DNA of 64,000 bases from Nibricoccus sp. (GTDB lineage: Bacteria; Verrucomicrobiota; Verrucomicrobiia; Opitutales; Opitutaceae): NCBI GenBank assembly GCA_047602425.1, contig JASGHG010000001.1, forward strand, positions 1,536,001-1,600,000, in the 5' to 3' direction. A program made the translations under genes and the position numbers. The notes under the pieces were generated by a model. That model did no database searches and was not told where the DNA came from. It saw nothing but the letters and a program-made list of their open reading frames with translations. Every line of letters begins with the position of its first letter. Position 1 is the first letter of the stretch. Shown piece by piece: positions 56,174 to 64,000 of this stretch.

Positions 56174-57328
56174 CTAGAACAGAACCTGCATCCGGCCGAT
56201 CAACCGATCGCCATCGTCAAAACCCTCGGGCTGGTCACCAATCAGGTAGTTGAGCGAGAGCTTCAGATCTTCGCCACGCAACAGGTAGTTCACACCTGTC
56301 GTCCAAACCTTGGTGGTGGTGTTGGTGGTTGCGGTATTGCTGTCGTAATTTTCATAACGCACCACGCCCTGCCATTTCGGCGTAATCCTGTAGGCTGCAA
56401 GCAGAGAATAGCCTTCGGCCTTGGTGACAACTCCAGCCGTCGTGCGATTTTCGCCGCGCAGCCATTCCGCCCAAATATCGCCGGAACCGATGGCGACTTG
56501 CGTGTCGATACCCAAGCCCTTCCGTACACCGCTGAACGCCGTGCCCGTACCCGTATCCCGCGTCCGGAGCGCGTTCGTGCCGACGCTCCACTTCAAGGGA
56601 GTGTCGCCAAGCTTGGTATCGACGACCAGTCCGGAAACACGTCCCGCCCACATCATTTGGTCATTATCGTTGGTTGTCGTATTCACGCCGCTGCCATTGA
56701 AGGCGCCGACCGAATACGAAATACGCTTCTCCACGACGTCCCCGGAAACCCCGACGCCGATTTGCCGGCCGAAGGTCAAACGATCGTTCGGTAGCGAACG
56801 CTCGATCGTGTGCGTCTTCGTGTCCGACGCCAGCTGTTCGAAGCCGAAAGGTGTTTTAAACTGGCCAACCTTAACGACCGAAAAAGCGTATTTGTTCCAT
56901 TGCAGGTAACCGTCGGTTAGTTGTGCTCGAAGTCCGCTGGAGGCGCCGAGCGTGTTCGCGCCGAAGTCGGCTTCGACTTTAGCCAGGAAGTCGCCGCCAA
57001 AGGTGGCCGTGGCATTCAAACGCGCACGACGCAGAAAAAACCGATTCGAGATACCCGCCCAACGCGCATCCGGCACGTCACCGAATTCGCCGTTTGCATG
57101 AATGAACCCACCCAGGACCAACTTCGTCTCCTTGCCCGCAGGAGCGACGAAAACCGGTGGTTTACCGTCCTTTGAATAGCCAAGTTCCTTTTTCAGCGCG
57201 GCGTTCTCGGCGGCCAACGCGGACACTTTCTTTTCCAATTCAGACAAGCGCTCCTCGATGGTGGGCGCAGCAAATGCCGGCAACGCCAAGAGAGCGAGCA
57301 CGGCCATTGGGATAGAACGAAGGATCAT
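56174..57328 (-). CDS. Phosphate-selective porin (OprO/OprP-like)
   Basis: Signal peptide, coiled coil, FFLRRARL, LTDGYL, KVGQFKTPFGFEQL...IERS, C-terminal RMQVLF. Confidence 0.85.
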   Translation of the reverse strand: MILRSIPMAVLALLALPAFAAPTIEERLSELEKKVSALAAENAALKKELGYSKDGKPPVFVAPAGKETKLVLGGFIHANGEFGDVPDARWAGISNRFFLRRARLNATATFGGDFLAKVEADFGANTLGASSGLRAQLTDGYLQWNKYAFSVVKVGQFKTPFGFEQLASDTKTHTIERSLPNDRLTFGRQIGVGVSGDVVEKRISYSVGAFNGSGVNTTTNDNDQMMWAGRVSGLVVDTKLGDTPLKWSVGTNALRTRDTGTGTAFSGVRKGLGIDTQVAIGSGDIWAEWLRGENRTTAGVVTKAEGYSLLAAYRITPKWQGVVRYENYDSNTATTNTTTKVWTTGVNYLLRGEDLKLSLNYLIGDQPEGFDDGDRLIGRMQVLF

Positions 57329-57620
57329 GTTGGTTGGTAGGGTTTGTTTAGAGCCTATTTTGTATTTCGGCTGCTTCAAGTGATCCTTAAGTTTCATCAC
57401 CTGGAGGGCTTCTCGCTGCCAGCTCGCACAATCTACTACATAAAATCGAGTTACTGCATGGTGCAGTTTGCGACAGAACTAGAAAATAAACCCGAACAAG
57501 TCTCTCCCTGCTACGGTAATGCCATGAAATTACATTAAGCAGCCGTTAGCACATCCAATATAAACCGGGAATGCACTCTGAGATTGCACCGCGGAAGGCC
57601 GTTTGAAACAACGTCGGCGC

Positions 57621-59735
57621 ATGTTTCGCACCTCCCGACCCCAGGGTTTGGTCCAAATGCTAGCGGTAGGTTTTTTGATCGTTGCGATCGCCGTCCGCTC
57701 GTTGGCCGAACCGACACCTGAAATCGCGCGCCAACGCATTTTCGAACTTCGCGCGCAGATCAAACATCATGATGCGCTCTATTTCCAAAAGGCGGCGCCA
57801 GAAATCAGCGATGCCGCTTATGATGCCTTAAAACGCGAATTGCGCGATTTGGAGCAGACTTATCCGGCGGAGGCCAAGACCGCTGTGCTCGCCGACGATC
57901 ATACGGATGGCTTCACCAAAGTGGTTCACCGCGTCCCGATGCTCAGTCTCGAAAAGGCGTACACCGAGACCGAACTCCGTGCGTTTTGCGACAGGATCGC
58001 CAAGTCGGCCGGAGACGTTGCGCGCTTCGTCATCGAGCCTAAAATCGACGGTCTCTCCGTGAACGCTGTCTACAAAAATGGTCGTTTCGAAAGCGCTTCG
58101 ACGCGTGGGAGCGGTCGCGAAGGCGATGACATCACCGCCAACGCATTGATGATCCGCCCACTGCCACGCGCACTCCGCACCACCAAACCTGACGGAACCG
58201 CCAACAATATTCCCACATTGATCGAGCTGCGCGGTGAAATCTACCTCTCGCACGCCGAATTCAACCGGTTGAATCGAGAACGTTACGCCGAAGGCGAACC
58301 GCCGCTTTCGCATCCCCGCAATGCCGCTGTTGGCACCATCAAGTCCCGCGACCCCAATGAAACCGCGGAGCGACATCTCGATATTGTTTTCTATGGCTTC
58401 GGCACTTGCGAGCCGGCGAACGCCACACCCGCCAGCCAGCAGGCGCTGCATGCGCAATTGCATGATTGGGGCCTGCCGGTTTTAGAAACCTTCACAACCG
58501 CCAAAAATACCGACGAAGTCTGGGCCGCGGTGAGGTCGCTCGGACAACGACGCGACAAACTCGCCGCACCCATTGACGGTGCGGTGATAAAACTCGACGA
58601 CGTTGCCTCTCGTACGCAGTTCGGCGATTCGGCTGAAGGTCCTCGCTGGGCCATTGCCTATAAATATCCCCCGGAGCGCGTCGCAACCCAACTGCGCGCC
58701 ATCACCCTTCAAGTCGGCCGCACCGGCGTCCTCACTCCCGTCGCCGAACTCGCACCCGTCGAACTGGCGGGCAGCACCATCGCAAGAGCCTCACTCCACA
58801 ATCGCGAACAGATCGCCCGCCTCGATCTTCGTCTTGGCGATACCGTTTACCTCGAAAAAGCCGGCGAAATCATTCCCGAGATCGTCGGTGTTGACCTCAC
58901 CCGCCGTCCGGCCATGAGTTCGCGCTATGCTTTCCCGCCGGATTGTCCGTCCTGTCATACGCCCGTTGTCAACGAGCAGGATATCTCGGCCGTGCGCTGC
59001 CCGAACTTCGATTGCCCCGCGCAACGGCAACGCCTGCTCTCTCATTTCGCGAGCAAAGCCGGCGTGAATATTGTCGGTCTTGGCGACAGCACACTTGCCG
59101 AACTTATCGCCAGAGACCTCATTCGCAACGCGGCCGATTTTTATGGATTGCAGAAAAGCGATTTACTGAAAATTCCCGGCTTGGGAGAAAAATCCACCGA
59201 CCAGTTGCTCAGCTCCATCGCTCGCAGCCGTCAGGCCGAGCTCTGGCGCTTCATCCATGGCCTCGGCATTCCGCAAGTTGGCCCCGCCACCGCCAAAACG
59301 CTGGCCCTTCGCTTCCATTCGCTGGAAAAACTGGCTGCCGCCAAGCGGGACGATTTACCTCCAGCTCTTGGTTCTTCGACCATCGACGCCGTCGAAGCAT
59401 TCATCGGCAGGCCGGAAAACCGGGCCTTGTTGCTTGCCCTCGACAAAGTTGTCCAACCCACGCAGGTCGCGGCGCACACCAACGACCTGTCAGGCAAAAT
59501 TTTCGTCCTCACCGGCCGTCTTCAGACTTTGTCGCGAGATGAAACCATCCGCCGGATCGAAGCCGCCGGCGGCCTCGTCCGCGACAGCGTGGGCAAAGCG
59601 ACCTCCTATGTCGTCGCGGGGGAAAACGCCGGGGAAAAGCTCACTAAAGCCAAAGCACTAAATATTCCGGTAATCGACGAAGGAGAATTGCTGCGACTTT
59701 TGGCCAACCCGCCGCCACCAGCGTCCGCTCAATAA
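57621..59735 (+). CDS. ligA: NAD+-dependent DNA ligase with an apparent N-terminal signal peptide
   Basis: Domain Ia LYF...PEISDAAYD, HRVPMLSL, KIDG, ELRGE, PRNAAVG, DGAVIK, PRWAIAYK, QVGRTG, four-Cys Zn finger, HhH repeats, BRCT. Hydrophobic leader MLAVGFLIVAIAVRSLA. Confidence 0.93.
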   Translation: MFRTSRPQGLVQMLAVGFLIVAIAVRSLAEPTPEIARQRIFELRAQIKHHDALYFQKAAPEISDAAYDALKRELRDLEQTYPAEAKTAVLADDHTDGFTKVVHRVPMLSLEKAYTETELRAFCDRIAKSAGDVARFVIEPKIDGLSVNAVYKNGRFESASTRGSGREGDDITANALMIRPLPRALRTTKPDGTANNIPTLIELRGEIYLSHAEFNRLNRERYAEGEPPLSHPRNAAVGTIKSRDPNETAERHLDIVFYGFGTCEPANATPASQQALHAQLHDWGLPVLETFTTAKNTDEVWAAVRSLGQRRDKLAAPIDGAVIKLDDVASRTQFGDSAEGPRWAIAYKYPPERVATQLRAITLQVGRTGVLTPVAELAPVELAGSTIARASLHNREQIARLDLRLGDTVYLEKAGEIIPEIVGVDLTRRPAMSSRYAFPPDCPSCHTPVVNEQDISAVRCPNFDCPAQRQRLLSHFASKAGVNIVGLGDSTLAELIARDLIRNAADFYGLQKSDLLKIPGLGEKSTDQLLSSIARSRQAELWRFIHGLGIPQVGPATAKTLALRFHSLEKLAAAKRDDLPPALGSSTIDAVEAFIGRPENRALLLALDKVVQPTQVAAHTNDLSGKIFVLTGRLQTLSRDETIRRIEAAGGLVRDSVGKATSYVVAGENAGEKLTKAKALNIPVIDEGELLRLLANPPPPASAQ

Positions 59736-62425: not shown

Positions 62426-64000
62426 TTAGCTCAGGACGCCGCCTTTGCTGGCGTTGGCCACGAGCTTGCGGTAGCGGGCAAGCCAGCCGTTGAGTTCGCG
62501 CCGAACCGGTTGCCAGGTCTTACGACGCTCTTCGAGCACCGCTTTGTCGACGAGGATGTCGATGCGGCGGCCATTGAAATCGATGCGCAGGCGATCGCCT
62601 TCCTTGAGCAAACCGATCGGGCCGCCTTCCGCCGCTTCCGGCGAAACATGGCCAATGCAAGCGCCGGCCGTGCCGCCGCTGAAACGTCCGTCGGTGATCA
62701 GCGCAACTTTGTCACCCAAGCCCATACCGACAATGTAACTCGTGGGCGAAAGCATTTCCTGCATGCCCGGGCCGCCGCGCGGTCCTTCGTTGCGGATGAT
62801 CACGATGTCACCGGCTTTCACTTTGCCGGCTAGAATGCCGGCGCAGGCGTCGTCCTGGCTTTCGAAAATCACGGTCGGACCTTCGAAGACAAAATCGTCG
62901 CCGCAATTGGCTTTGAAGGCATCGCTGATTCCCGCGGTTTTCACGACCGAACCTTCAGGTGCAAGATCTCCGTAAAGAATCGAGAGGCCGCCGTCCTTCG
63001 TGTACGCGCGATCCGCCGAGCGGATACAATGCTGTGCGTCGAAGCGGAATGCCGGGTCGTGCGGCATGAGACCGGCCGGTTTCGCCACAGCAAAATTCTT
63101 CGGATCGTAGTCGTGCGCAGCGCGCGCGATCGTGCCAGCCGTGTGCAGGCGCGGCGCGCGGAGCAGACAGTGGATTTTTTTCTCACCGGTCTTTTCGTAC
63201 TGCCAGATGATGAGCGTCGGCGTGCCGCGCACTTCGGCGAGTTCGGCGCGGACGAGGCCACGGAACTCGACAAATTTCGGCTTGAGGCCCGCTTCGATTT
63301 CGAGCGCACCGTGCCAAGTGTTGGATGAGTCGACTTCGAGTTCGCCTTTCGTGCCGAACAAGGCGCCACAGGCAGCGGCGTCGCCGGCGTTGAAAGCTGC
63401 GGCAAAACGCCAGAGCGCAATCGCGCGATCGTCGGCGGGATGGAAGAGCATCGGCTTCGGGATCAAGTTGCCCGACGCAGTGCGTGCGGCCGGACCCATT
63501 TTGTCGTTCGGGTCGAGCACGAGCGCGGAAGCGCCGGAAACGCGCGTGATGCGCGCCTCGTCGGTGCAGGACGGCGAGCGGAGATCCCATGCGTCGATAT
63601 TTTCGCCCAACGTTTTACCCGTGACGGTCAGGCATTCGGTCTTGAGCGCGCCCATGCGTTTGAGTTCGCCAAGGATCGTGTGAATGCCACCGGCGCGATG
63701 AACGTCCTGAATATGATAGTCGGACGACGGCGAAACTTTGCAGAGGCACGGCACGCGACGCGAAATGCCATCGATGCGCGCGATATCGTACTCGATGCCG
63801 GCCTCGCGGGCGATGGCGAGCGTGTGGAGCACGGTGTTGGTCGAGCCGCCCATGGCGACGTCAAGCGCGAGCGCATTGTCGAACGCGTCAAGTGTGGCGA
63901 TATCGCGTGGTTTAAGATCGCGCTTCACGAGTTCCACGATCTGCTTCGCAGCGCGGCGGTAGAGTTGCTCACGTTCTTTCGAAACGGCGAGAATTGTACC
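62426..64000 (-). CDS. ilvD: Dihydroxy-acid dehydratase (5' part outside the window) with a large internal insertion
   Basis: [62 protein letters not shown]. The frame stays open to the edge ([21 protein letters not shown]). Confidence 0.95.

Follow-up and report, generated by a model that had tools for sequence, protein, structure and literature searches.

A second NAD+-type DNA ligase with a predicted signal peptide in Opitutaceae, and its relation to LigA, LigB and LigE

The window analysed here, a stretch of 64,000 nucleotides of Nibricoccus sp. DNA, holds an open reading frame for an NAD+-type DNA ligase whose first codons read like an export signal. NAD+-dependent ligases are usually treated as cytoplasmic, and among exported ligases the reviews consulted name the ATP-dependent LigE only. 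The locus raises the question of whether this is the housekeeping LigA of the cell with a start codon called too early, or a second ligase destined for a place outside the cytoplasm. The frame (57603-59735, plus strand) was confirmed, and TTG 57603, ATG 57621, ATG 57657 and TTG 57702 are all present in frame, the last three as named in an earlier, sequence-only reading. The public gene call for the same sequence (P0001) also gives 704 amino acids, and the named near relatives are Opitutaceae. The features of the locus are collected in Table 1.

Table 1. Features of the second ligase locus, in positions of the window
Feature	Position	Strand	Remarks
Upstream element TTGC(A/C)...GTTTGA(A/G)A(C/G)AAC	57584..57612	+	in 5/5 same-genus loci
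Second NAD+-type DNA ligase gene	57621..59735	+	704 aa with leader; ORF open from TTG 57603
Predicted Sec/SPase I signal peptide, 29 aa	57621..57707	+	predicted cleavage after S-L-A
In-frame TTG, alternative leaderless start	57702..57704	+	not conserved: start codon here in 0/4 same-genus orthologues
Domain Ia (NMN-binding) with Y, D, Y, D residues	57735..57905	+	PF22745
Adenylation domain	57909..58676	+	PF01653; KxDG lysine 58041-58043
Lys at the E. coli Asn84 position	57954-57956	+	inside adenylation domain; residue alignment
OB-fold domain	58686..58913	+	PF03120
Four-cysteine finger, all four Cys present	58944..59021	+	PF03119
Helix-hairpin-helix region (Pfam-matched part)	59247..59426	+	PF12826, PF14520
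BRCT domain	59478..59699	+	PF00533; absent in 15/99 group members

Start codon and leader

Read from ATG 57621, the leader has the form that had been described for it: two arginines are followed by an uncharged stretch, whose mean hydropathy over 10 residues is 3.14, and by S-L-A before EPTPE. A-L-A takes the place of S-L-A in three close relatives (P0002-P0004). ATG 57621 is aligned with the start ATG in 5/5 same-genus loci, and three of these five carry an in-frame stop four codons 5' of the aligned ATG, so that TTG 57603 is no shared start. On these alignments ATG 57621 is the conserved start, which corrects the set of start options in the earlier reading.

Conservation was scored with a mechanical hydropathy-and-charge rule of our own, which is not SignalP. 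A total of 101 Opitutales loci were tried, one of which lacked the anchor; 100 were scored and 95 placed in a tree, five being too short. The largest clade that contains the query but not the ligA of the query's own genome was taken as the second-copy group, and it comprises 32 loci from 32 genomes. The leader test is passed by 31 of these 32 copies as compared with 4 of the 63 housekeeping Opitutales copies, while an ATG at domain Ia is found in 4/32 and 62/63, respectively. A broad genome scan gave two passing loci among the 76 LigA loci scored (80 fetched, 4 unscored). A lack of conservation among orthologues had been named as grounds for giving up the leader, and the result of 31/32 speaks for keeping it. 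What is conserved in the leader is its character and not its sequence; its dN/dS is 0.56-0.68 in three close pairs and reaches 1.0 in others (22-28 codons).

The same loci bear on the possibility that the protein is a cytoplasmic backup or stress ligase translated from an internal start, its upstream codons being untranslated or used only sometimes. The query has the TTG at 57702, which would give MAEPTPE, some ATG, GTG or TTG lies behind the hydrophobic stretch in 19 of the 32 copies, and 8 of 88 database proteins of the group have no hydrophobic region (h-region) as called. However, this TTG is absent from 4/4 same-genus orthologues, which have no ATG, GTG or TTG at all from the hydrophobic stretch to domain Ia. 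They belong to 13 of the 32 second copies without any such codon, and 27 of the 32 lack an ATG there. In the other 19 copies the positions are scattered and mostly GTG or TTG, whereas the upstream frame is open and hydrophobic across families. An internal start is thus very improbable. One of the eight database proteins without an h-region has a leader interrupted by a glutamate, and in the rest the starts look as if they had been called too far downstream.

In the 80 database proteins with an h-region, the n-region is net positive in 72, and a neutral or acidic stretch follows the h-region in 72. A strict A-x-A is present in 39/80. The leader was also compared with other export routes. A lipoprotein was rejected, as the lipobox is found in 0/80 leaders. 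Tat export was rejected as well, since the RRRMF read from TTG 57603 is not conserved and RRx(F/L/I) occurs in 4/80. The positive n-region, the neutral or acidic stretch behind it, the lack of a lipobox and the few RRx(F/L/I) motifs together point to Sec and signal peptidase I with the enzyme outside. The leader features would fit this route, and an uncleaved anchor with the enzyme outside would be less likely.

An uncleaved anchor in the inner membrane was nevertheless considered more widely, with the enzyme facing either the periplasm or the cytoplasm, where NAD+ and zinc would be at hand for a role in chromosomal repair. The uncharged stretch has a median of 19 residues, which is enough to span a membrane, and strict A-x-A sites are limited to just the 39 leaders mentioned above. 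Against this, in 72/80 leaders a positive charge precedes the h-region and a neutral or acidic stretch follows it, and by the positive-inside rule such a distribution places the enzyme outside. We regard an anchor as rather unlikely, and return to it below.

Catalytic core and descent of the second copy

The core of the query scores as LigA against the curated NCBIfam models (680 bits for NF005932 with a cut-off of 369, and 666 for TIGR00575 with a cut-off of 444) and shares with LigA (structures 2OWO and 5TT5) the order of domains, the catalytic residues and the fold, being 38.4% identical to the E. coli enzyme. The residues equivalent to E. coli Y22, D32, Y35, D36, E113, K115, D117, R136 and E173 are kept, as are those equivalent to R200, Y225, D285, K290 and K314 and the four finger cysteines. 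The NTase residues reported in PMC5052709 as essential for LigA (K115, D117, G118, E173, K290, Y225 and E113) are all found in the query. Across the group, Y22, D32, D36, E113, K115, D117 and G118 are invariant in 99/99 members, and so are R136, E173, R200, D285, K290 and K314; the finger cysteines are present in 98-99 of 99. In the AlphaFold model (mean pLDDT 85.7), residues 9-28 form a helix of low confidence ahead of the LigA fold, and the best fold matches among solved structures are LigA. The description of the enzyme as catalytically intact stands for the residues and for domain Ia, the zinc finger, HhH and BRCT, and holds at the level of sequence. The core dN/dS is 0.14-0.27 in 10/10 same-genus pairs, and the core is under purifying selection.

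The query differs from LigA by its leader of the signal-peptide type, by a lysine at position 84 and by longer branches, and its group often lacks BRCT and is a patchily kept second copy. The change from Asn84 to Lys is specific to the group (98/99 members versus 0/71 housekeeping Opitutales copies); a literature source for a role of Asn84 was sought and none was found. Asn198 is changed in 75/99 members, in 72 of the 99 to His. Among the housekeeping Opitutales ligA genes themselves, 8/71 have none of the four finger cysteines, and in several genera an insertion in the HhH region splits the matches.

The query also lacks the leaderless start at domain Ia and the housekeeping role of LigA, both of which fall to the other copy in the genome. 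This second, leaderless ligA, which had been proposed as a check, is present at G000:C1:4013358-4015400 and starts directly at domain Ia. It is 49-50.6% identical to the query and groups with the housekeeping copies of relatives; the query is therefore not the only ligA of its genome. A housekeeping copy is present in 32/32 carrier genomes (29 fetched, 3 as matches). Among near-complete genomes of the family, 20 of 35 carry the leader-bearing second copy, as do 2 of 47 other Opitutales, and a second match was found in 0/52 other genomes of the class; the count covers these three sets, in a phylum with 267 further genomes. Named members of the group are Horticoccus luteus (P0033), Opitutaceae TAV1/TAV5 (P0206/P0297) and Pelagicoccus (P0155).

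FastTree unites the Opitutales leader copies (support 0.914 in one tree and 0.744 in another). In IQ-TREE, 15 of 16 sampled leader copies form one clade (100/99) inside Opitutales ligA (100/99), with L039 outside, and the AU test for a single leader clade gives p 0.054. One tree places the main clade as sister to all Opitutales ligA, and others nest it in the ligA of the family. A tree rooted on LigB was discarded, because the long branch of LigB made it useless. The main clade (support 1.0) also takes in 31 of 148 further representatives; all 31 have Lys84, and 27 have an h-region. Taken together, the query appears to be a duplicate of Opitutales ligA that carries a conserved predicted signal peptide.

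Other leader-bearing NAD+ ligases lie outside the main clade, namely L039:3983-5866, P0171 and P0176, the last with His84. L039 pairs with P0171, both being leader-bearing with Asn84, and they may represent a second small leader lineage. It is possible that L039/P0171 and P0176 are further independent origins of the leader.

Several minor observations were made during this survey. A pair of a leader-bearing and a leaderless ligase occurs outside the family in one genome (G286; L178 and L179), another (G026) has a third adenylation-domain match, and in a third (G003:C122:47633-47926) a separate ORF with BRCT only lies about 2 kb downstream of the second ligase. In the phylum sample, two or three matches to the adenylation domain, the best of them scoring strongly, are present in some genomes of other classes (families f47, f62 and f78 and genus g122). 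Many genomes of f42, f49, f59 and f73 give weak split adenylation-domain matches only, which suggests a large insertion in this domain.

Relation to LigB, LigE and a KSB3 lineage

A class of exported NAD+-dependent ligases had been thought to be without precedent. The reading of the query as a second, leader-bearing ligase is supported, but that of a class without precedent is corrected by E. coli LigB, a characterised NAD+-dependent ligase, which has a leader of the same type. All 12 LigB proteins, that of E. coli K-12 (L071:2489-4171) and 11/11 others (L159-L169) from a sample of 151 Pseudomonadota genomes, start with a signal-peptide-type leader. All 12 have Cys-Pro right behind it, a finger reduced to two cysteines, and Lys84. 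The leader, the Cys-Pro and the two-cysteine finger of LigB suggest disulfides and export. The leader-bearing class is thus larger than had been thought, and a studied enzyme already belongs to it. The literature covered by the search had no report of an NAD+-dependent ligase that is exported or carries a signal peptide, though the LigB leader may be on record elsewhere; the main text of PMC5507437 contains no mention of signal, periplasm, locali-, membrane or secret-.

Like the query, LigB (YicF, NF005987) is a second NAD+-type ligase beside an intact ligA, with a similar leader, Lys84 and Gly487. For the first 90 residues of the query, a LigB cluster is the top feature match (score 0.90, a lead only). 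However, the query as a member or descendant of LigB was ruled out by score and identity, as it is 22.8% identical to LigB and reaches 200 bits with a cut-off of 498 for NF005987. It descends from Opitutales ligA and has BRCT and four finger cysteines, whereas LigB as described in PMC5507437 has no BRCT and two cysteines. The query group also retains E113 and K290, which are changed in 12/12 and 11/12 LigB, respectively.

This last difference matters for the idea that the query is exported but binds or protects nicked DNA or senses NAD+, with little ligation. PMC5507437 reports that purified E. coli LigB shows less than 1% of LigA activity in vitro and that growth is blocked even when a catalytic mutant is overexpressed. 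Such a role would also agree with the change of Asn198 in 75/99 group members. The group nevertheless keeps every catalytic residue checked, unlike LigB, and a role without much ligation is quite improbable.

A further lineage was found in a separate clade of 24 proteins (support 0.99), of which 22 have short, typical leaders and one carries the name of candidate division KSB3. None of the 37 sisters of this clade has a leader, and the closest leaderless matches with a name belong to KSB3 as well; the leader arose separately here. The clade, whose members include P0244 and P0299-P0313, has Lys84 in 15/24 and lacks BRCT in 11/24, as compared with 0/37 and 0/37 in the sisters. Some of these BRCT losses could be contig ends, and three are on contigs of more than 1 Mb. 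P0301 (with leader) and P0336 (leaderless), both on contigs of 10,139,277 bases, are probably from one genome.

Lys84 is present in 99% of the Opitutales, 62% of the KSB3 and 100% of the LigB lineage, in contrast to 0% of the Opitutales and KSB3 sisters. The corresponding values for Gly487 are 60%, 62% and 100%, compared with 8% and 0% of the Opitutales and KSB3 sisters. Seventeen positions are shifted in the Opitutales lineage as well as in that of KSB3; seven of them change to the same residue, and of these seven Lys84 and Gly487 are fixed in LigB. All three lineages share the change of Asn84 to Lys and a frequent or complete loss of BRCT. Since Lys84 is also found in 12/67 outgroup ligases that lack a leader, it serves as a hint and is not specific to export.

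Like the query, LigE is an accessory ligase that has a predicted leader for export and, in the account given in PMC7470946, lacks a conserved operon. It is ATP-type, with two domains in an open frame of about 280-330 codons, and its core with OB_2 (PF14743) and without domain Ia is not that of the query. The LigE-type OB domain was looked for in 35 Opitutaceae genomes and found in none, the query genome included, whereas 19 of 151 Pseudomonadota genomes match; PMC10799422 describes LigE as restricted to proteobacteria. The only ATP-type ligase of the query genome adjoins a gene that reads like Ku. The query would resemble LigE in its predicted place and LigA in its chemistry, and it belongs to neither LigE nor LigB. 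As a side result, LigB (11) and LigE (19) do not overlap in the 151 Pseudomonadota genomes; a mutual exclusion was not accepted, as about 1.4 overlaps are expected and the difference is not significant.

Possible role and gene neighbourhood

We consider that the second ligase is probably exported, as far as its leader can be interpreted, and that, given export, the ligation of outside DNA is likely. As a whole, we favour with moderate confidence the reading in which Sec exports the query and the enzyme, as a counterpart of LigE, uses NAD+ to close nicks in double-stranded DNA outside the cytoplasm. The chain would cross the inner membrane through Sec and be cut after S-L-A by signal peptidase I, and the mature enzyme would fold in the periplasm. 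The KxDG lysine would then be adenylated with NAD+ from outside the cytoplasm, supplied by lysed cells or leakage, and nicks would be joined in DNA of the periplasm, of vesicles or of the surface matrix. Matrix DNA would be the most likely substrate, because ComEA was not found.

The last point also concerns the proposal that the enzyme is exported to the periplasm and repairs incoming (transforming or transferred) DNA before this crosses the inner membrane, as proposed for LigE in a competence model (PMC7470946). The same leader evidence agrees with it, ComEC is encoded in the query genome, and in one case (L176:5709-6839) dprA is the immediate downstream neighbour of a second ligase. However, ComEA is above cut-off in 0/35 Opitutaceae genomes while it exceeds the cut-off in 5 controls, dprA adjoins the ligase in one of the 21 neighbourhoods compared, and ComEC says little, as it is matched in 10/14 controls. 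A role in the repair of incoming DNA is therefore unlikely.

Several points count against export. The four-cysteine finger is kept as in a cytoplasmic zinc finger, and it is kept although a VKOR-type oxidase is encoded in 4/5 genomes tested, including that of the query (DsbB in 0/5). A supply of NAD+ outside the cytoplasm is also needed. A cytoplasm-facing anchor would account for both the finger and the NAD+ supply. In addition, an E. coli ligB deletion is a weak mutator and is sensitive to peroxide and mitomycin C, which its authors read as chromosomal repair (PMC5507437); by analogy this may count against export and would be in line with an anchored repair enzyme. However, the leaders of KSB3 and LigB are short and end in small-residue sites, which speaks against an anchor.

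For LigE, the possible counterpart, a predicted periplasmic leader has been described (PMC7470946, PMC10799422 and PMC6144786), its location being unconfirmed by fractionation in PMC10799422; LigE has been proposed to join outside DNA, and its loss lowers biofilm (PMC10799422). Loss of ligB results in 1.6-fold less biofilm (PMC5507437), and in a preprint LigB of Pseudomonas is listed among the partners of a diguanylate cyclase. An increase of ligB by 3.6-fold in a cpxR deletion (PMC2731931) is too weak as evidence. The low activity of LigB, the growth block by its mutant and the loss of biofilm could, in our reading, also be compatible with an exported protein that was expressed with its leader.

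A more general proposal is that exported NAD+-dependent ligases evolved at least three times in outer-membrane bacteria (Opitutales, KSB3 and LigB), converging on the same residue changes, and that together with LigE they fill one niche, the joining of outside DNA with cofactor from lysed cells. We hold the chances for and against this proposal to be about even. Two more small exported lineages perhaps exist besides these three. If the proposal is true, E. coli LigB is a periplasmic enzyme that has been investigated as if it were cytoplasmic. This would account for the low activity of the purified protein, the ligase-independent toxicity of its overexpression and its biofilm defect, and the role of LigB becomes testable by simple experiments in K-12. 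That export leaders arose repeatedly on full-length NAD+ ligases would imply a common need for DNA joining outside the cytoplasm, and also a supply of NAD+ there. Such proteins, all now annotated as plain LigA, are possibly robust new ligases.

The genus-conserved element upstream of the gene (Table 1) is possibly a promoter, although no sigma-70 consensus site was found at the element and no regulon sharing it was found across the genome. A methyltransferase gene precedes the ligase gene in the genus, and a comparison of the 21 neighbourhoods gave no conserved operon or partner genes beyond the genus. In the window, a phosphate-selective porin O/P gene (56174-57400, minus strand) lies between the methyltransferase gene and the ligase; its ORF call starts at 57400, with a leader-like start near 57329. 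The methyltransferase and ligase genes adjoin in three relatives, and a different insert is present in one relative. In a single case (L183:2726-4387), a 5'-nucleotidase converges on a second ligase. Further downstream in the window, a gene that is presumably dehydratase-like (62426-63937, minus strand) appears to be interrupted midway by an insertion of about 130 residues.
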